From: Escherichia phage FFH2
DNA: 64,000 nt
Sequence record: KJ190158
Strand: one strand, 5' to 3'
Shown here: one piece after another, positions 2,238 through 61,418 of the stretch
Numbering within the stretch: the stretch's first letter is position 1
How the letters are laid out: the number at the start of each line of letters is the position of its first letter
Notes under the pieces: generated by a model
The model's input: the letters and a program-made list of their open reading frames with translations, nothing else
Database searches by the model: none
What the model was told of the DNA's origin: nothing
Translations under genes and position numbers: made by a program

Positions 2238-3056
2238 TTGAGCAAGAAAGAGTCTAACGACAAATACTACACAAACCCTGAGTATGCAGAATATCTTGTT
2301 GGTAGAGTAAAAGACAAGTATGGGAATTGTGCATACGTTGAGCCTTCTGCTGGAAGGGGTTCTTTTTCAAAACTATTTTCAGAGATACTGTCGTACGATC
2401 TAGTACCAGATCCTGAATTTGAAGGACCAACACCGTGCATTCAGGCAAACTTCTTGGAGGTGCATCCCAAGGCAGATGTCTTCATAGGTAACCCACCATT
2501 TGGCAAGAATTCATCTTTAGCTTGCAAATTCTTTAACCATTGTGCATCGTTGCTAGATCTTGGCGGGGCTATAGCCTTCATCTTGCCACGGACATTTGAA
2601 AAAATATTTTTTGCAAACAAACTGGACATGTCTATGCACCTTGTCTACAGCGAAAGGTGCCCTAAGAACTCGTTTTTACTTAATGGCAAACCTTATGACG
2701 TGCCATGTGTTTTCCAAATTTGGGAGAAAAAGGCGTGCAATAGGGATCCTGTAGAGATTGGAGAGAATAGGTTATTTTCTTTTAGCACACCAGATGACTA
2801 CGACTTCTGTGTAAGACGTGTTGGGTATAATGCTGGAAAAGTATTGGGTGATGATGACCCAAAATCTAAAGAATCTACATATTTCATAAAATCTTTAGTT
2901 GACGGTGTTGACAGAGTGTTTGCTGAATGCTATTCTTCTTTTCAAGAAGAAGCAGGTAAGACTGCTGGAATGAAGAGTATAGGCAAGAAAGAACTACAAT
3001 ACATTTTGGAGACCCGGTATGATCAAAAGTATAGACTTGACCAAAGAACTTACTGA
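2238..3056 (+). CDS. DNA N6-adenine methyltransferase, gamma-class
   Basis: Motifs YYTNPEY, VEPSAGRGSF, IGNPPFG; TTG 2238 after GGAGG; table start 2208 lies inside terminator hairpin. Confidence 0.7.
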   Translation: MSKKESNDKYYTNPEYAEYLVGRVKDKYGNCAYVEPSAGRGSFSKLFSEILSYDLVPDPEFEGPTPCIQANFLEVHPKADVFIGNPPFGKNSSLACKFFNHCASLLDLGGAIAFILPRTFEKIFFANKLDMSMHLVYSERCPKNSFLLNGKPYDVPCVFQIWEKKACNRDPVEIGENRLFSFSTPDDYDFCVRRVGYNAGKVLGDDDPKSKESTYFIKSLVDGVDRVFAECYSSFQEEAGKTAGMKSIGKKELQYILETRYDQKYRLDQRTY

Positions 3057-4310: not shown

Positions 4311-4897
4311 TCGGAATTGATGTAGATTTGACACTGGTAGATTCAGGAACAGCATGGTGGGAGTGGTTGGAGCGTTTGTATGGTCCAGCCAGTAAGACAG
4401 TCGCTAAACCTTCTAATGGACTGATGTATTACGATCTGTCAAAGTATTGGCCTGATCGCCCCAAAGAAAACATCATAGGGCCTTTTGATTTCTGGAGTGA
4501 CCCATTCCTCTACGACTTTCTTAAGCCTGAAGAGGGGGCTATTGAGGTTATGAAAGATTTGGTGGCTCGTGGTCACAAGCTTGCATTTATCTCGGTATGC
4601 AAGAAAGGTCACCTTGCATCTAAATCAAGGTTCTTAAAGCGTTGGACCAGTGATTTTATGGATCTGGACGATCACACCCAGGGTCACGGCTTCTACGCCA
4701 CACATTTCAAAGGAAATGTGGCTGTAGATGTTATAATTGACGACAGGCATGAATACCTTAACCAATTCGCTTCACGACCTGAAGTTATTAAAATCCTAAA
4801 AGATACGCCTTATGAGCAATTCGAGGAGTTAAAGGTCAGTGTTGACTATACCGCTAATAGTTGGTATAAAATAGGAAAGTTTTTAGAAGGTATTTGA
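4304..4897 (+). CDS. HAD-family 5'(3')-deoxyribonucleotidase-like
   Basis: N-terminal GIDVDLTLVD DxD motif typical of HAD nucleotidases. Confidence 0.55.
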   Translation: MLIGIDVDLTLVDSGTAWWEWLERLYGPASKTVAKPSNGLMYYDLSKYWPDRPKENIIGPFDFWSDPFLYDFLKPEEGAIEVMKDLVARGHKLAFISVCKKGHLASKSRFLKRWTSDFMDLDDHTQGHGFYATHFKGNVAVDVIIDDRHEYLNQFASRPEVIKILKDTPYEQFEELKVSVDYTANSWYKIGKFLEGI

Positions 4898-9234: not shown

Positions 9235-10323
9235 ATGGCTGTATTTAATGCTGAGAACACCGCTCATAAAACTGGTGACTATCCGCTGTTTCTAGGACAG
9301 CAAATGGGTATGTACGACTCTATCAACAAAAAATATCCACAACTGTTTGAACTATACAAAAAACAAAAAGAACAAGACTGGGCAGAGGATGAAGTGGATT
9401 TGTCGCAATCTATTTCAGATTTTGTAACATGCTCCAAGTCAACTTATGATGTGATGGTGCAGACCTTGATGTGGCAATGGGAGGCTGATAGCGTTGCGGC
9501 AAGATCGATCATCTGCCTCTTTTCACCATTCATCACTAATAGTGAGCTTTTCACTCTATTGATGAAACAGTCAGAGATTGAAGTTCTTCACGCACTAACT
9601 TACTCAGAGATTGTTAGACAATGCCTCCCCAATGCCCGTGAGATTATAGAAGAGATTCAGGAAAACCAAAACGTTCTGAGCAGATCTGGCGTTATTGTCA
9701 AATACATGCAAGAGCTTGAGGTTATTGGTGCAAAATACCGACTGGATCCTTCTAGTGTTAAAGAAGATATTGTGCGGAAATGCATTCTTAGAGCGCTTTT
9801 TGCACTTTTAGCCCTGGAAAGTATTGAGTTTATTGCAAGTTTTGCATGCACTTTCGCAGTAGCTGAACAGGGTATTTTTGTTCAGGTGGCGCAGCTTGTT
9901 CAAAAAATCATGCTTGACGAAATGCTACACTCGAAAGGTGATTTTGCCATCATTGATATCCTGCTTAATGATCCGGCATGGGAGAAAAGCTTCCTTGAGA
10001 TAAAAGGGGAGTTAAAAGAGATTCTTGATGAAGTACGAACCAAAGAGTACGGTTGGAGTGACTATATTTTCAGCGAAGGAAGAGCGATTATAGGTCTTAA
10101 CTCACCGTTGCTTAAAGAATGGGTTGACTATAACTGCTCACCAATTTATGATTACTATGGCATCGACAAAGACTTTGTGCCGCCAACAAAGGACCCTCTA
10201 CCGTTTATGCAGGTGTGGATGAAACCTTCATTGCAACAGACGGCGAACCAAGAAATGTCGAACACTGACTACCGCGTCAACACAACTGTTAACGACGCTG
10301 AAGAAGAAATTTGGGAGTTTTAA
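9235..10323 (+). CDS. nrdB: Ribonucleotide reductase class Ia small subunit
   Basis: 362 aa directly downstream of nrdA, R2-like length and composition. Confidence 0.8.
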   Translation: MAVFNAENTAHKTGDYPLFLGQQMGMYDSINKKYPQLFELYKKQKEQDWAEDEVDLSQSISDFVTCSKSTYDVMVQTLMWQWEADSVAARSIICLFSPFITNSELFTLLMKQSEIEVLHALTYSEIVRQCLPNAREIIEEIQENQNVLSRSGVIVKYMQELEVIGAKYRLDPSSVKEDIVRKCILRALFALLALESIEFIASFACTFAVAEQGIFVQVAQLVQKIMLDEMLHSKGDFAIIDILLNDPAWEKSFLEIKGELKEILDEVRTKEYGWSDYIFSEGRAIIGLNSPLLKEWVDYNCSPIYDYYGIDKDFVPPTKDPLPFMQVWMKPSLQQTANQEMSNTDYRVNTTVNDAEEEIWEF

Positions 10324-11462: not shown

Positions 11463-12260
11463 TAACAAACTGGCCGTTGTAAAACTCTCCTAACCTCATA
11501 AGAGGGGTCGGTAAATCCGGCTAACGGGGAACGCTAAGGCGAAAGCTATGCCAATCCCGTGACTAGTTCTTACAGGAGTTGGAACGGTTGTAACGACTAA
11601 CGAAAGGCAGAGATGCTTGACAAACATTTCTGAACCAAGTAGTGTAGAGGTTAGTTGAAATACTAACTTCGAAATGGAGAGGCTCTATGAAAAAGATCAT
11701 TCTTAATGGTGAAGAATCAAACTATGTGATTGATGAGGTTGGAAACGTATACGGAAAACGTGGAATGCTACACCCAATATTGTGGGGAGGTTATGGAAAA
11801 GGTAACAAGCATGTTAAACGCCGTTATATGTACTCTTTCAACCACAAAGGTAAAAAGATTCGAATCCAAACCTCAAGGATTGTTGCCTTGTATTGTTTGC
11901 CAGATGTCCCAGAAGACCCTGAAAACTGGGAAGTGAATCATAAAGACGGCAATACATTGAATGATCATCCGTCTAACCTAGAGTGGGTTTTGCCGGAAGA
12001 TAATAAGAGACATGCTTTCCGAACAGGGCTTTGCCCAGGCAAGTGCTATAGGAAAGTGCAGGCATACAAAGGGAAAACCTTGGTGGGTGAATATCCTTCA
12101 CTCTATGCCTGTGCAAAAGCCTTAAATTTGAACGTAGGTAACGTTCATAGGGCTATCGAAGGAAATGCCGAAGGTAAGCATCTCACAATAAAGGGTTATT
12201 ATCTTATTGAAGTAGAGTAAGAGATAGTCTGGCCCTGTGGAAACACAGGGGAGGAGACAG
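11463..12260 (+). mobile_element. Group I intron interrupting nrdD, carrying an HNH homing endonuclease ORF
   Basis: Exon 1 ends on U, insert ends on G, splicing restores in-frame NGQTPF; P7-like gactag/tagtc pair; in-frame stop at intron start. Confidence 0.7.
11687..12220 (+). CDS. HNH homing endonuclease (intron-encoded)
   Basis: EVNHKDGNTLNDHPSNLEWV HNH motif; ggagagg RBS. Confidence 0.75.
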   Translation: MKKIILNGEESNYVIDEVGNVYGKRGMLHPILWGGYGKGNKHVKRRYMYSFNHKGKKIRIQTSRIVALYCLPDVPEDPENWEVNHKDGNTLNDHPSNLEWVLPEDNKRHAFRTGLCPGKCYRKVQAYKGKTLVGEYPSLYACAKALNLNVGNVHRAIEGNAEGKHLTIKGYYLIEVE

Positions 12261-28515: not shown

Positions 28516-28726
28516 ATCTGGTGCACGATTGCATACCTTGGGTAGTTAATCTCATTACAGAGCGTTTAAGAGCTCCCTACAAACAACTCCATATTTCGAG
28601 CGTAGCGAGAACGCACGTCCGTTTTGACCCAAATCACCATACGCTCGGATTTTAACCAAACCCTCGCGGCGTTTCTGTGGACACATTACCGATCCAGTGA
28701 TAGTATCCACACATAGTTTGTAGAAT

Positions 28727-28828
28727 ATGGAGTACACAATGAGAACATTGTCCGAAGTTTTAGTGGTGATCCTGATGATCATTACGTCCATAGCGGCTGT
28801 TGCCGGAATACTCACGGGTGGAACATGA
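28727..28828 (+). CDS. Small hydrophobic peptide (33 aa)
   Basis: MEYTMRTLSEVLVVILMIITSIAAVAGILTGGT; stop overlaps next ATG. Confidence 0.3.
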   Translation: MEYTMRTLSEVLVVILMIITSIAAVAGILTGGT

Positions 28829-29037
28829 TCAACACACATGCATCTGAAGAGACATCCGAAGGAGTTACCATCTGTCCCTTGGCTGAGCCAGTGAAAGAGG
28901 AAAACTTCGATTCTGAAGATTATCCATCTCCGTCCCAGGTAGATCCTGAGGCTGATGACCTAACGTGGGAAGACATCGTAGATATCTGGTTCTCTATTAT
29001 GCCTGAGCACGAAGAGTTCAGGGGTGGTAGACTATGA
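28825..29037 (+). CDS. hypothetical acidic protein
   Basis: ORF only. Confidence 0.45.
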   Translation: MINTHASEETSEGVTICPLAEPVKEENFDSEDYPSPSQVDPEADDLTWEDIVDIWFSIMPEHEEFRGGRL

Positions 29038-29156
29038 AGCACCGAGCCCACACAGGTTCCTCATACTAAAGCATGGCCTGAAGAGGCAAACGTGCATAAT
29101 TCCTGCGCATTTGGACGTATAATCCTGTTCACACTCTCATTTCCAGAGGAGATTTT

Positions 29157-29372
29157 ATGAAGATAGAAATATTTGGTGGAGCTGACAACACTCGTGGCCT
29201 GATTTACCTTGAATTTGATGAATCATACCTGCCAGAGGTGTTAAATATAGACTCTGTTGCTGAGGCTTTGGGAGTAAACCCTAAAGAACTCCACTCTTGT
29301 GCTGAGATCGATGGTTGGGAAGAGACCATGAACATTGATTTCAGTGAAGTAGAGGATGAACCGCTGGACTGA
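29157..29372 (+). CDS. hypothetical acidic protein
   Basis: RBS agaggag; last rightward ORF before ORF-free region. Confidence 0.45.
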   Translation: MKIEIFGGADNTRGLIYLEFDESYLPEVLNIDSVAEALGVNPKELHSCAEIDGWEETMNIDFSEVEDEPLD

Positions 29373-29499
29373 CACACAATTAGCTGCCCGGCTAAAGTGC
29401 TGGAAGCACCTATAACACATCTTTCAACTAAATTTCCTACCACCACAATCACTTACCTCCCACACATGACTGTTTGCTTGTTTAGTGAGCAGTCATGCC

Positions 29500-29527
29500 T
29501 TGACATTCTTGCCTATCCTGATAAAAT
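29500..29527 (+). promoter_or_regulatory. sigma70-type promoter TTGACA-N16-TAAAAT with TG extended -10, firing into ORF-free region
   Basis: Consensus -35, extended -10; preceded by 8-bp inverted repeat catgactg..cagtcatg; no ORF downstream. Confidence 0.5.
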
Positions 29528-30841
29528 TAAGTTCTTCTCTTTTCTTTTACCGAGTAATTCGGGTTTTCTGTTCTCTTCGGTTTGAAGGGGTATAGAGATA
29601 CACCTGAGTGAACAGGGTGAACAACCGAACATTTGGCTATGGCATTAGCATGGCGAAGCGGACGGGTGACGAAAGAGGGGCCGGAGGACACCAGTCACTG
29701 CCATATGATATATGGGTGATAACCTGAAGAGTCTGAATAAGTGTTTAAGTACCAGTCAGAGGAAAAGGTGAATGGTAGCCGAAGGGGGAGGGGGGTTTCT
29801 TGTATCTTTAATTTGTATATTATGTATACACTTGTAAACCAATCTCATCTGAATTTGTTTACCACACAAAGTGGATAGGGACAAATATTACCTATTAAAC
29901 TTGAATTATTTATAGAAATACCACAACACCACTTAAGTCTTTGATTTTACACACAAATCCTACAGATATTCACCCTCCATATTTAACATACCTGTAACAT
30001 ATTCCATACCCTACCTGACCGATCAATTCACCCAACTACATCCCCATATTTTCCCTGTCTGTACTACCCCTGCCCCGCCGGGAGTCCCGTCATATCTGGC
30101 TTTCCAGCAAATATCACACCCACAAATATCATTGCCTGAAGAGGGTTTCATCCCATAATACATGCCTTACCTGAAGAGCGCTTCATACACCACGTAAATT
30201 TTTTAATTGACCCCCTCCCCGCCGCCGGAGAGGTTGGCTTTTCCCACACAGACCTGAAGAGTCAGCCAGAAATATCTGAACAGGTCCAGCTATGCCACGA
30301 TTTTGTGCTTGTCCTACAGGAGTGCCTCCCTGTCAGGAGCCGGTAGCGACTGGAGTGCTGCCAGGCGGACGAAATGGGAATCATTCTCATTCTTATAACA
30401 ATTCTCAAATATCGAGGCAGTGAGGCAAATTAATAGGTGAGGCCGTTCACACAATGGCACAACATTTGCAACCTATCTTGTGGGAGTGAATGAGAATACC
30501 TATCATTGTGAGAATAGTTATCATTACGGGCAATTTAACATAATACCCATTATGCGCACCACTGGCGATCCATACAGGGATTGATAACATGGGTTACTGT
30601 TTACACACATAACAATTATATTTCTTACTATTTGTGTGGGATATAGTTAGCAGCCGATAGATTAGATATTGACCTGTAGACTTCCAACCGTCCAGACGTC
30701 TAAACGCCCACACAACAAGGGTTATACATACACAACTGAATGTAAACAGGGCCGCAAAAATGCTACCATACAAGCTTGTAAATTTTTCATGCAGCACTTG
30801 ACAAAGAGGAGGAAAACTTGTCTGACACTTTAGACACAATA

Positions 30842-30888
30842 GTGACATAATATGACATAATGGTGACACTGAACATAATTGACATGCC
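30842..30888. repeat. Tandem 10-bp iterons (G/A)TGACA(T/C)(A/T)AT
   Basis: gtgacataat-atgacataat-ggtgacactg-aacataattgacatgcc. Confidence 0.55.
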
Positions 30889-30992
30889 TGACTGTTTACA
30901 TAGCTAACTATTCATACAGAAATGATAAGCCATGCCATTCGTTTGCATGATAATAATTAACTTGTTTACAATAGATGACATAATATAAAAGC

Positions 30993-31025
30993 AGGGCAAC
31001 TATTAGAAGATCTATAGTTGCCTTG
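30993..31025. repeat. Near-perfect palindrome around GGCAACTAT / ATAGTTGCC
   Basis: agggcaactat-tagaagatc-tatagttgccttg; 9-mer recurs at 31052 and 31159. Confidence 0.55.
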
Positions 31026-31774
31026 CTTGTTATGTCATGATTAACTAAATACAAGGCAACTATGATCTGATTAATAGTTTGCAGACAAACTATCACGGGG
31101 GTGATGGTTACTGCTTTTATATTATGTCGCGACTCCGTCGCGCCATGCCATTCGTTTGCATAGTTGCCTTATTGTTACAGATAAAATAATTGTATTGTTA
31201 ATTATTTCTTATCTTTCTCTTAGTCATCTAATGATTCCAGTCAGTATAGTAATGTACAGTAAACATTAGACGACTAAAGATTTCTCTGTTTATTATAACT
31301 TACCGTGACAATTTCAGGCTGTTTACGAAAAATGTTGACACCTGGGCCGATTTATGTTATGCAGTTTACACGAATAATTATTTTATGCAGGTATTGACTA
31401 TTCCGTTATTCTATGGTTGGAATAAATACTTAGCAGACTATAGAATGGTGAGCGTACGTAAATTCTGAGATCTGGCGGCTATAGTTATACTCGATTTTTC
31501 ACGTAGAACACGCTTTTGTTAGTGTGTAAGTGTATGACTTATAAAGATTTTTAGTTGTTGACAAGATATTGAAGATGTGCATCAGGTTAAATTTTGTGCA
31601 ATAGCGGCATTACGTGCAATTTTGAGAGAGAAAACGGGTAAAAATGGCCTTGCTATCACACAATGAAAAATTATGCAATAGTTATTTTACATGTATGTTT
31701 GTACAGTGTGTGGGATTGATGGCTAGTCAATTATTCCACTTGCCAGGCTGGGCCGTTTGTGGTAGGAGAAATAC

Positions 31775-31806
31775 AGACAAAAAGAAAGGGGCCTTTTAAA
31801 GCCCCT
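31775..31806 (-). terminator. Intrinsic terminator for leftward cluster
   Basis: aggggc..gcccct stem followed on minus strand by ttctttttg. Confidence 0.55.
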
Positions 31807-31824
31807 GATAGTTTAGTTAAGAAA

Positions 31825-32244
31825 TTATAATGATTCGTATATTTCATAGATTCGATTTGCCAGGTCGTTACGGTAGCGGAATTTTTCCTCACGTTTGATC
31901 ATCAGATCTTTAAAGCCATATTCTTTAAGCACTTCATTAACTTTATGGCGGCATACCTTCATATTATCCTGTGCGTCACCAATAAACCTGTTGCTATGGT
32001 GCATGGCTTTAATTTCTTCTTCCAGGACCAGAGCAACTATGCGGACCGGATCAAGCTGATAGGCGGTAACATCCATGCGGCATTGTAAACGACTTTTTAC
32101 GTCTGCCACCGGATATACTGCAACCTCTTCCCCGTCAACATTGACAATAATTAGTTTACCATCGATTTCGAATCCTTTCGCCGCCGGACCGTGACAAAAA
32201 GCGTTATCAAAGCTATATGCCGGATTATTAGATTTAATGTTCAT
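31825..32244 (-). CDS. hypothetical protein
   Basis: ORF with own promoter (32294-32322) and terminator. Confidence 0.55.
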   Translation of the reverse strand: MNIKSNNPAYSFDNAFCHGPAAKGFEIDGKLIIVNVDGEEVAVYPVADVKSRLQCRMDVTAYQLDPVRIVALVLEEEIKAMHHSNRFIGDAQDNMKVCRHKVNEVLKEYGFKDLMIKREEKFRYRNDLANRIYEIYESL

Positions 32245-32390: not shown

Positions 32391-32654
32391 TTATTTGTTG
32401 CTCATCCAGTTTTCCCAAGCTGCCTGATAATCTGCCTCACTGCGGCGGATCTCTTCTTGTTCTTCAAGCCGGATCTCTTCTTCCAGGTACCCCAGGATAT
32501 CGGCTTTTTTGGTCTGGCGTAACATCCAATCATCTTTTTTACGAGTAAAGATCTTATAAGCTTTCTCGCAAACCTCTTTTTTGCTACCTTTTTGGACTTC
32601 AAGAACACGATAAGCCATATATTGAACTAGTTTGAGCTGGTCAAGACGTTTCAT
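32391..32654 (-). CDS. hypothetical protein
   Basis: RBS aaagaggaaaac; flanked by GC hairpins. Confidence 0.5.
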   Translation of the reverse strand: MKRLDQLKLVQYMAYRVLEVQKGSKKEVCEKAYKIFTRKKDDWMLRQTKKADILGYLEEEIRLEEQEEIRRSEADYQAAWENWMSNK

Positions 32655-61076: not shown

Positions 61077-61418
61077 CTACTCAAGGTCTTCAGAGTCAAG
61101 CTCAAAAAGAATCAAACTGTGCATGCCTGCAGAGAGATCAACACACCCTGCAACAATAAGGGTCTGATAGTAAGGTTCAGCACCCTCAATGTCTTCGTTA
61201 AAATCTACAACAAGATAGTCACCTTTGTTAAAGGTGTATTTGTCCGATGTAAACGCAAAACCTGCCCAGTCCCCGACTGCAGGATCTTTATCAGTCACCT
61301 TTGTTAGCAGCAGGTCTTTTTCACGAGATCTTTTAGTAAAATCGTGAATCACAACATCCTTCTCTTCAGGAGTTGGATTGCCACACACGTAGTTAACTAT
61401 ATTTCTCCACAAACTCAT
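61077..61418 (-). CDS. hypothetical protein
   Basis: Stop overlaps downstream start. Confidence 0.45.
   Translation of the reverse strand: MSLWRNIVNYVCGNPTPEEKDVVIHDFTKRSREKDLLLTKVTDKDPAVGDWAGFAFTSDKYTFNKGDYLVVDFNEDIEGAEPYYQTLIVAGCVDLSAGMHSLILFELDSEDLE

Follow-up and report, generated by a model that had tools for sequence, protein, structure and literature searches.

In this study, we revisited a stretch of 64,000 nt of the genome of Escherichia phage FFH2 (KJ190158), referred to below as the window, which comes from a Vequintavirus (rV5-like) genome. At the locus of interest two small ORFs (28825–29037 and 29157–29372), the last ones on the + strand here, are separated by a 119-nt spacer and followed by a 2.45-kb ORF-free gap (29373–31824). 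The gap holds a promoter, a candidate structured RNA and the direct terminal repeat of the phage, and copies of a 9-mer, CCTGAAGAG, accompanied by boxes of the sequence CAAATATC, are spread from the small ORFs to the repeat (Table 1). The repeat was placed by mapping the coordinates from a published PhageTerm analysis of phage LL12 (PMC6658697) onto the window. The GenBank record of bov11CS3 begins at the equivalent of 30364, the records of Gotham, YN3, ECP2303, EdH4 and HdK5 end at the equivalent of 30822, and the Gotham record annotates a 459-bp repeat_region. A Pfam search of eight neighbouring small ORFs gave no domain, and no small terminase gene has been recognised in rV5-like phages. 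An 87-aa neighbour is labelled 'DNA translocase FtsK' in some records.

Table 1. Features around the CCTGAAGAG cluster (columns: feature, position in the window, strand, remark)
Degenerate sixth site TCTGAAGAG	28843..28851	+	CACACA just before; in 5' end of 70-aa ORF 28825–29037
Copy 1	29077..29085	+	In spacer between last two small + strand ORFs
Sigma70-type promoter	29500–29527	+	11/12 positions matched, TG extension
Candidate structured RNA, about 270 nt	29534 to about 29800	+	Contains copy 2
Copy 2	29723..29731	+	Within ultra-conserved candidate ncRNA block
Two CAAATATC boxes	30108–30115 and 30123–30130	+	Accompany the motif
Copy 3	30135..30143	+	Immediately 3' of second CAAATATC box
Copy 4	30170..30178	+	Local duplicate of copy 3, 35 nt away (family D6: 20 nt, 85% identical)
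Copy 5	30253..30261	+	Terminus-proximal; starts 111 bp left of repeat border
Direct terminal repeat, 459 bp, physical genome ends	30364..30822		LL12 PhageTerm mapping and GenBank record ends

The original prediction held that CCTGAAGAG occurs five times within 1.2 kb, twice in the longer form ACCTGAAGAGTC, and that the copies lie in non-coding DNA; no further occurrence in the window had been noticed. The five exact copies were confirmed, each on the + strand, and the longer form is found at 29722–29733 and 30252–30263; the degenerate sixth site had been missed. However, the motif is not confined to the cluster, as four further copies are located at 4526, 5393 and 12825 (+) and at 61370 (−), each of which reads in frame as CCT-GAA-GAG (Pro-Glu-Glu) within a long ORF, on its coding strand. 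Copies 2–5 lie in the ORF-free gap, and copy 1 lies outside it in the 119-nt spacer. In total nine copies were observed in the window against 0.67 expected from dinucleotide shuffles, so that the frequency is above chance. CCTGAAGAG ranks first among the 9-mer clusters of the window, and in 300 simulated sequences of 64 kb (third-order Markov) the biggest 9-mer cluster per 1.2 kb had two to four members and never five. Bases 1–109687 of rV5 contain eight copies, all on the + strand, of which five form the cluster and three are coding. The cluster is non-random. A variant form of the motif is CCACAGAG.

The original prediction had also named the equivalent loci of related phages as a place to look, and there the motif is kept, both within Vequintavirus and in the divergent L005/L040/L053 lineage. 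Copy 1 is retained wherever a Vequintavirus locus extends over the site, and L005, L040 and L053 have it at the homologous place; copy 3 is exact at the homologous position in the same three. Copy 2 is exact in L005 and L040 despite differing flanks, is lost through a 25-nt deletion in L053-type relatives and is changed to CCTGAAAAG in L097, while the L005 lineage lacks copy 4, which some Vequintavirus genomes carry in mutated form. In KPP-1, GACCTGAAGtGTCAGCC matches copy 5 plus flanks at 16 of 17 positions, and Murica has an exact CCTGAAGAG at the sixth site, where FV3 and HMD-6 have CCTAAAGAG. At the four sites homologous between the window and the L005 lineage, all 36 motif bases are identical, whereas the 40-nt flanks of these sites are about 63% identical after optimal alignment (P ~ 8e-8), a difference that shows CCTGAAGAG itself to be under purifying selection. 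Every genome retains three to six copies on one strand, though individual copies are mutated or deleted, and sister lineages carry new copies at new positions. The Septuagintavirus-like phages A73 and A5-4 have no DNA alignable to the window in this region, yet each has one exact CCTGAAGAG, at −106 and −109, respectively, ahead of the homologous terminus CTGCCA|GGC, at which the UPEC06 record ends exactly. In addition, these two phages carry the related 9-mers CCTAAAGAG, CCTACTGAG, CCCACAGAG and TCCACAGAG in a direct-repeat array with a spacing of 21–23 bp, which is two helical turns and a DNA-type geometry. Attempts to find further lineages by IMG/VR pattern scans gave mostly chance matches, and a metagenome scan returned only two lineages, both already known. 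A tblastn search with a 71-aa neighbour protein gave matches in Vequintavirus only, blastn in distant mode detected no DNA homology outside the genus, and the matches of a literature search for the motif were primers, with no paper mentioning CCTGAAGAG.

The copies could be relics of local duplication that have no function of their own and are kept through the conservation of the whole block. Copies 3 and 4 are a local duplication, the sixth site and copy 5 share a longer similarity of 23 nt (family D5), and much of 29423–29800 and 30073–30272 is conserved anyway. However, the 9-mer is exact where its flanks are diverged or unalignable, sister lineages gain copies, strand and copy number are preserved despite this turnover, and the simulations never reached the observed cluster size. 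This explanation is already disfavoured and we consider it very improbable. That part of the original prediction which proposed a sequence-specific recognition site is borne out as far as a selected, strand-fixed word is concerned, by a conservation of the 9-mer that exceeds that of its flanks across lineages. Thirteen of 13 sites have a purine at −1, which is the sole informative flanking position, and no RNA fold or other flanking context common to the copies was found. The motif, extended to R-CCTGAAGAG, is on this comparative evidence a well-supported putative recognition site, short and asymmetric, for a sequence-specific factor, situated in the gene-poor and presumably cis-acting right-end region of rV5-like genomes.

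Because of where the repeat lies, the motif copies are situated 111–1287 bp left of the genome terminus, with copies 3 and 4 starting 229 and 194 bp left of the repeat border; the cluster adjoins the physical end of the genome. Relative to the terminus, the start of the nearest copy falls at −106 to −111 in the window, LL12, A73 and A5-4, at −77 in rV5, at −127 in navn, at −133 in L005 and at −188 in L040. The CAAATATC box occurs only three times in the window, all at 30108–30130 or inside the terminal repeat, the third one at 30406, where its AAATATC is at +43 from the left border. AAATATC is found at +39 to +44 in the terminal repeat of every lineage examined, across three clades, and boxes equivalent to CAAATATC are present in L005, L040, L053, A73, A5-4, KPP-1 and Phapecoctavirus. 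On the right side the repeat is followed by an array of TGACAY words (30823–30885; copies at 30823, 30843, 30853, 30864 and 30880), and both flanks of the repeat vary among relatives. The Phapecoctavirus genomes Mt1B1_P17 and L006 have the same terminus layout with a direct repeat and AAATATC at +44, but CCTGAAGAG was not found in either of them, and therefore ends of this type can form without the motif. The genes on the left side of the repeat point away from it in Phapecoctavirus; the phages that bear the motif are those with genes transcribed toward the terminus.

Based on these observations we propose, tentatively and as the likeliest of the explanations considered, that the CCTGAAGAG copies are candidate DNA sites for a sequence-specific protein that would help to organise the concatemer junction for terminus formation or packaging. 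A phage-encoded protein would bind the copies as double-stranded DNA, and the bound copies together with the CAAATATC boxes would form a nucleoprotein complex at the concatemer junction, left of the 459-bp repeat. Such a complex could help the packaging or terminus-forming machinery to locate the junction and act on it, serving as an accessory 'pac-like' recognition array, and the distant copies (28843, 29077 and 29723) may be extra, partly redundant loading sites. Action on DNA rather than RNA, a phage protein as the binder and terminus formation or packaging as the process are what we infer here. The proposal is consistent with the position of copies 3–5 within 111–229 bp of the repeat border, with the exact copy near the terminus of A73 and A5-4, with the identity of all motif bases to L005, and with the adjacent AAATATC boxes at fixed offsets from the terminus in three clades. 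The loss of single copies from genomes that all keep several on the same strand suggests redundancy, as expected of a site array. In favour of DNA are the phased array of A73 and A5-4 and the lack of an RNA fold shared among the copies; moreover, in these two phages the last gene is followed by a stable hairpin with a T-run (−19 kcal/mol) and the array lies downstream of it, with no promoter predicted for the array strand, and hence little sense transcription is expected over the array. Against the proposal stand the variable distance between the last copy and the cut, and the three sites 0.6–1.5 kb from the terminus, one of them in an ORF and one in the candidate ncRNA, such distant sites being unusual for a pac signal. 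The absence of the motif from Phapecoctavirus despite an equal terminus layout also counts against it, as do the unphased spacing of the window copies (646, 412, 35 and 83 bp) and the lack of a Pfam-recognised binder among the eight neighbouring small ORFs. Finally, every copy is in sense orientation relative to the upstream operon and the 29500 promoter, and the restriction of the motif to phages that transcribe toward the terminus fits a transcription- or RNA-level role too.

Two known kinds of arrangement resemble the proposed one. In T7 and T3, short-repeat arrays (SRL and SRR) and pacB reportedly flank a 160-bp terminal repetition, and to our knowledge the function of the T7 arrays is still unclear. 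The likeness lies in a non-permuted genome with a short direct terminal repeat and in same-strand words of 7–9 bp in non-coding DNA on both sides of it, in the window CCTGAAGAG on the left and the TGACAY array on the right. In addition, the variant CCTAAAGAG of the relatives contains CCTAAAG, which we take to be the T7 word. However, rV5-like phages belong to a different family and are myoviruses that use the host RNA polymerase, and the window copies are fewer and far more dispersed, up to 1.3–1.5 kb from the repeat and into the operon. The R sites of lambda cosB, the pac hexamer repeats of P1 and pacL/pacR of SPP1 are terminase recognition arrays, and they too consist of several short asymmetric sites within a few hundred bp of the cut that makes the virion end, with redundancy that tolerates the loss of single sites. 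These arrays are compact (about 100–200 bp) and their binding by the small terminase or a host factor is proven, whereas here the distance of the motif to the cut varies between genomes and Phapecoctavirus lacks the motif.

Alternatively, the motif could act in + strand transcripts, that is, in read-through RNA of the last early operon and in the RNA that starts near 29534, where an RNA-binding protein would bind or an RNase would cut it, or where it would pair with CUCUUC stretches in the 5' portion of the candidate ncRNA. The block 29534–29800, a candidate sigma70-driven ncRNA, is 98–100% identical in 16 genomes compared with 80–95% for the neighbouring genes, and the stem of its 5' hairpin differs in sequence between lineages while the pairing is retained. 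The covariation rests on only two lineages, with part of the RNA misaligned by MAFFT, and its solid part consists of the 5' hairpin and one G–C to C–G swap. The position of copy 2 in this block is in favour of an RNA-level role, and so are the location of copy 1 and the sixth site within the last operon and the sense orientation of all copies relative to the upstream genes and the promoter. CACACA, a frequent neighbour on the 5' side of the motif, shows 11-fold enrichment on this strand and elsewhere occurs in the 5' leaders of early genes; furthermore, no canonical terminator was found between the last gene and the copies in the window, nor did the rV5 authors find one, and the motif is missing in Phapecoctavirus, where the genes run away from the repeat. 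However, the copies have no secondary-structure context in common, the clean deletion of copy 2 in L053-type relatives leaves the remainder of the element intact, the A73 and A5-4 array follows a strong terminator hairpin and its helical phasing is meaningless for RNA, and Rfam gave no match in the region, either for the candidate RNA or for the hammerhead models. We regard an RNA-level function as possible but doubtful.

A role in transcription itself was also considered, in which a phage or host regulator would use the sites as operators for the ncRNA promoter and the terminal early genes, or as a roadblock that halts convergent transcription into the repeat and packaging site. Sites are found close to where the last two ORFs begin and immediately 3' of the 29500 promoter, there is no obvious + strand terminator ahead of the repeat, the uniform orientation is what would be expected of a polar block, and only lineages whose transcription converges on the terminus have the motif. 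On the other hand, the spacing to −10 and −35 elements is inconsistent, A73 and A5-4 keep the array and the terminus-proximal copy although a terminator is present, and no regulator gene was recognised nearby. Only copy 3 overlaps a promoter-like match (TTGCCT-16-CATAAT), and in LL12-type genomes the loss of its TTG abolishes this match. We think this explanation unlikely. A sigma70 promoter or activator box was rejected, as no other copy overlaps a promoter-like match and there is no common distance to a −10 element.

Similarly, the repeats could be iterons for a phage initiator, perhaps with host DnaA as a partner, and with the non-coding region serving as a replication origin. As in iterons, the direct repeats have one orientation, and those of A73 and A5-4 have an iteron-like periodicity. 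L005-type relatives have three perfect DnaA boxes (TTATCCACA) in the region equivalent to the repeat, the + strand of the region has a 2.6-fold excess of DnaA-box-like words, and a skew change at 104425–105475 was pointed out in the rV5 work. However, the window copies are dispersed rather than arranged in a tandem, phased array, the word is only 9–10 bp long, no initiator gene is adjacent (Pfam, eight neighbouring ORFs), most of the DnaA-like matches in the window contain mismatches, and the skew change coincides, according to the rV5 authors themselves, with the switch in gene orientation. An origin at this site seems improbable to us. T5-like phages have a non-coding, repeat-rich terminal region (injection-stop) as well as 10-kb repeats and two-step injection. 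The window region shares with it an ORF-free end region on the kb scale, direct and inverted repeats and DnaA-box-like words, but there is no sequence similarity, and we know of no two-step injection or 10-kb repeats in rV5-like phages.

Several other identities were tried and rejected. Nothing speaks for a methyltransferase or restriction target, since CTGAAGA, the core embedded in the motif, recurs all over the window (20 + 10 copies); the type IIS sites CTGAAG and CTCTTC are likewise common genome-wide. The CUGAAGA of the motif fits the CUGANGA core of hammerhead ribozymes, but neither a GAAA strand nor a stem III was seen by eye, and Rfam gave no hammerhead at the gathering threshold over the window and none at E up to 10 in 28800–32000. 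A Shine–Dalgarno or small-ORF start signal would require start codons, which follow only copy 1 (GTG at +6, 22-aa ORF) and copy 2 (GTG at +9, 45-aa ORF) and none of copies 3–5. An Hfq-type sRNA family with a shared seed was dismissed since the GC-rich segments ahead of copies 3 and 5 form no stable hairpins; their variation among 16 genomes is not compensatory, and the absence of copy 4 from a sister lineage also speaks against it. A common RNA hairpin around the motif was rejected as the context differs from copy to copy. FtsK-gamma/KOPS-like sites were considered on account of nearby GGGNAGGG tracts, but Pfam found no FtsK domain, and Chi-like protection was discarded as the motif is unlike GCTGGTGG and the single true Chi of the window lies elsewhere.

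The rV5-like phages of the genus Vequintavirus are among the most often isolated coliphages and among those most used for therapy and biocontrol, and yet the 2.4–2.6 kb 'non-coding' box in their genomes has lacked an explanation since the rV5 genome paper. This box now holds a placed terminal repeat, and the placement gives mutable targets around it, namely a 9-mer family under selection and fixed AAATATC boxes. These targets could be used in studies of packaging and end formation, for engineered or rebooted genomes with correct ends and for annotating the termini of new isolates. It is conceivable, though rather unlikely, that CCTGAAGAG and AAATATC together form a new bipartite signal for end recognition, used in short-terminal-repeat packaging by a large group of myoviruses, or, alternatively, that CCTGAAGAG is a handle for a phage protein on terminal transcripts, with 29534–29800 representing a new class of structured RNA. 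If the motif acts on RNA, it would point to an undescribed phage RNA–protein system.

The five exact copies of CCTGAAGAG on which the original prediction rested are present, all on the + strand, and the longer form ACCTGAAGAGTC does occur twice. The impression that the 9-mer is absent elsewhere in the window was mistaken, as four further copies lie outside the cluster; all (4/4) are read in frame as CCT-GAA-GAG codons, each from the coding strand of a long ORF. Set against expectation, the frequency is nevertheless high, with nine copies in the window where 0.67 are expected. CCTGAAGAG forms the top cluster among all 9-mers of the window, of which only two others reach four copies in 1.2 kb, and when the sequence was simulated 300 times with a third-order Markov model, no 9-mer ever clustered in five copies, the best clusters comprising two to four. 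Bases 1-109687 of rV5 contain eight copies, all on the + strand, namely the cluster's five plus three of the coding copies. A sixth, degenerate site is an exact motif in Murica and reads CCTAAAGAG in FV3 and HMD-6. The 22-aa ORF that begins just past copy 1 may be a coupled leader peptide, since its stop overlaps the start of the 71-aa ORF (ATGA).

By megablast, 120 phage records match 28700-31000 at 90-99% identity, all of them rV5-like coliphages of the genus Vequintavirus. Among these are about 19 GenBank MG0656xx records entered as "UNVERIFIED Campylobacter phage" (e.g. L012, L014, L017); because they match this coliphage region at 90-95% identity and carry a Vequintavirus classification, their Campylobacter host labels are probably wrong. 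In rV5 the homologous region is a 2604-bp stretch from ORF163 (+) to ORF164 (-), at which two gene blocks converge. It has been drawn merely as a grey "non-coding" box, in which the authors expected bidirectional terminators, yet did not find them (PMC3606486), and the gap is also mentioned in the Murica genome announcement. Neither the motif CCTGAAGAG nor a function for the box was found in the literature searched. In the 87-aa ORF downstream, Pfam gave neither an FtsK domain nor any other significant match.

Features of the terminal region and of related contigs (window coordinates unless a contig is named)
Feature	Position	Strand	Remark
Sixth site, TCTGAAGAG	28843	+	CACACA in front; within 70-aa ORF
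CCTGAAGAG copies 1-5	29077, 29723, 30135, 30170, 30253	+	start 1287, 641, 229, 194, 111 bp left of left repeat border
22-aa ORF	29092-29160	+	GTG start 6 nt past copy 1; TGA stop
71-aa ORF	29157-29372	+	left boundary of ORF-free gap
ORF-free gap	29373-31824		
Sigma70 promoter	29500-29527	+	TTGACA-16-TAAAAT with TG; near-consensus
CAAATATC	30108, 30123, 30406	+	only three copies in 64 kb
GAAATATC	30269		companion element
Direct terminal repeat	30364-30822		459 bp
Tandem 18-nt repeat TGAGAATAnnTATCATT	30491-30525		within terminal repeat; presumably Fur-box-like
TGACAY words	30823-30885		about 10-20 bp apart; adjoin right repeat border
Dense repeats	30929-31180		right of terminal repeat; several palindromic units GCAACTAT/ATAGTTGCC
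Identical 20-mer	30929, 31142		
Perfect 18-nt inverted repeat	30977-30994, 31111-31128		
139-aa ORF	31825-32244	-	right boundary of ORF-free gap
87-aa ORF	32391-32654	-	"DNA translocase FtsK" in several GenBank records
CACACA in early-gene leaders (examples)	38712, 42539, 37971, 33017	-	
Three DnaA boxes, L005	about 2530-2580		reverse complement
Three DnaA boxes, L040	about 11960-12000		
Three DnaA boxes, L053	about 9455-9500		reverse complement
HNH_3 homing-endonuclease ORF, L005	6716-7486	+	Pfam E = 1.6e-18
Element of about 50 nt (cactggctacgccaggtgg...), L040	about 10053, 11537, 12478, 12530		repeated

The physical genome ends lie inside this "non-coding" box, where the direct terminal repeat was located by aligning the published PhageTerm termini of LL12 (PMC6658697) to the window. 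GenBank record ends give independent support to this placement: bov11CS3 and bov25_3 start at the equivalent of 30364, and Gotham, YN3, ECP2303, EdH4 and HdK5 stop at the equivalent of 30822, Gotham also annotating a 459-bp repeat_region. With the left border at 30364, the motif copies therefore occupy the final 1.3 kb of unique sequence on the right-hand side of the virion chromosome. Variation in the region peaks at 30273-30372, immediately left of the repeat, and at 30823-30922, immediately right of it, column identity just outside both borders being 59-75%. The TGACAY array is highly variable within Vequintavirus, and a sister lineage has other short repeats instead (TAGGCATACTT twice). 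The tandem TGAGAATAnnTATCATT inside the terminal repeat has similar words, 'aatgagaataattatcatt', as counterparts in the repeats of the Klebsiella phage KPP-1 (L065) and of Phapecoctavirus (L006).

The motif recurs at equivalent loci of relatives, the five sites being kept in the same places in almost all of 16 aligned Vequintavirus genomes; L011, L012 and L015 each lack one exact copy (copy 4 or 5). In these genomes 29423-29800 is 98-100% and 30073-30272 is 96-99% identical, and the flanking genes are only 80-95% identical. Because the motif flanks are so conserved inside the genus, the telling comparison is that with the divergent sister lineage, represented by the IMG/VR and metagenome contigs L005, L040, L053, L096, L099, L103 and L105, in which islands alone can be aligned, at about 77% identity. 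The homologues of copies 1, 2, 3 and 5 read exactly CCTGAAGAG here, and additional copies have appeared at other positions. All motif bases (36/36) agree at these four homologous sites, as against 63% of the optimally aligned 40-nt flanks (P about 8e-8 for the contrast); that the motif has persisted by pure hitch-hiking is very unlikely. Single copies do turn over: a 25-nt deletion has removed copy 2 from L053-type contigs, copies 2 and 4 are CCTGAAAAG and TCTGAAGAG in L097, and in some relatives the copy nearest the terminus reads CTTGAAGAG or TCTGAAGAG. Despite this, three to six exact copies are kept per genome, always on the same strand. A purine stands at -1 in 13/13 sites, whose flanks hold no other information. 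The relatives' non-coding region has been invaded by mobile DNA, and in L005 the homing-endonuclease ORF adjoins an extra motif copy. In the sister lineage, the region equivalent to the repeat also contains three tandem DnaA boxes, all perfect (TTATCCACA); DnaA-like words in the window's repeat region are imperfect only.

A second element, CAAATATC, clusters round the left repeat border. In the window, in LL12, rV5, navn, L005, L040 and L053, and likewise in A73, A5-4, KPP-1 and Mt1B1_P17, the repeat has AAATATC at +39 to +44 bp from its border, and one to three further copies lie 34-278 bp left of the border (loci L065, L091, L106, L005 and L107 were among those compared). The exceptions are A73 and A5-4, in which the exact left-side AAATATC is further out and a near-variant, AAATATATC, is close to the last motif copy. 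Because its offset is fixed across two subfamilies, AAATATC, likely a core end-recognition element, is a better candidate for that role than CCTGAAGAG, which would be a clade-specific addition in its neighbourhood. On the + strand of 28700-31824 the word CACACA shows 11-fold enrichment (12 copies), often just upstream of CCTGAAGAG; elsewhere it is found on the sense strand, where it directly follows a -10 box or a hairpin and precedes the ribosome-binding site of a small early gene.

The Septuagintavirus-like phages A73 and A5-4 have only the downstream genes in common with the window, and none of their DNA could be aligned to its motif region. Homology puts their terminus at gcactgctgcca/GGCAYGG, the counterpart of ggagtgctgcca/GGCGGAC in the window (the slash marks the terminus), and the UPEC06 record ends exactly there. 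To its left, past the last gene, follow a stable hairpin with a T-run (-19 kcal/mol), two AAATATC boxes, a direct-repeat array of related 9-mers spaced 21-23 bp apart (CCTAAAGAG, CCTACTGAG, CCCACAGAG, CCTATCGAG, TCCACAGAG and others) and, last, a single exact CCTGAAGAG, whose start precedes the terminus by 106 bp in A73 and by 109 bp in A5-4. No promoter is predicted on the motif strand of the array region. In KPP-1 (Mydovirus), with its repeat at 116316-116829 (PMC9862379), CACACAaatgggttgaCCTGAAGtGTCAGCC, a 16/17 match to copy 5 plus flanks, and CACACACAatCTGAAGgG lie left of the repeat. Phapecoctavirus (L006, Mt1B1_P17; Stephanstirmvirinae) has the 139-aa neighbour in common with the window and a 328-bp record-borne repeat; CCTGAAGAG was not found in these two phages, and the genes left of their repeat are transcribed away from it.

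These comparisons establish CCTGAAGAG as a selected, oriented, context-free putative recognition word of 9-10 bp, tied to the terminal cis-acting region. We tentatively favour, as a possible reading, that its copies would be bound as DNA by a protein and, as an array, serve in forming the terminus or in packaging, since they adjoin the cut and the terminus-proximal copy is deeply conserved, since AAATATC boxes accompany the motif and the sites are redundant, and since a helically phased array stands behind the terminator in A73 and A5-4. The absence of the motif from Phapecoctavirus, its variable spacing to the cut and the three sites lying far off, within an operon or a candidate RNA, count against this. 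The main rival, action at the RNA level, is in our view only slightly less probable; it would be consistent with every copy being on the sense strand of transcripts that run towards the terminus, and with the motif occurring only where transcription converges on the repeat. Operator or roadblock sites, and equally origin iterons, are less likely readings.

The candidate RNA follows the sigma70 promoter, in whose place the sister lineage has TTGCAA-17-TATAAT. The block of about 270 nt past this promoter is almost invariant (98-100% identity in 16 genomes), exceeding the conservation of the neighbouring genes. In the first hairpin past the start site, CCGA/UCGG is replaced by CCAGAAG/CUUCUGG in the sister lineage with pairing kept, a U-rich run follows in both lineages, and a longer-range helix keeps its pairing through a G-C to C-G swap; the whole 279 nt fold with z = -2.0. 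The region has no Rfam family match, and the block no conserved reading frame, the sister lineage having a 5-nt indel and an early stop. Judged from two lineages only, 29500-29800 is a credible candidate for a new structured phage RNA or leader, with copy 2 in its deletable part.

The nearest analogue is presumably found in T7/T3, whose terminal repetition is flanked by short-repeat arrays and pacB; the terminase recognition arrays of lambda cosB, P1 pac and SPP1 pac presumably come next. Membership in any of these families cannot be claimed, because one group sharing this end layout lacks the motif and the spacing of the sites to the cut varies; for the terminase arrays, in contrast to CCTGAAGAG, binders are known. 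The CCTGAAGAG sites are a real, conserved and previously undescribed family of putative cis-elements next to the genome terminus in an important genus of phages, and one that is directly testable.
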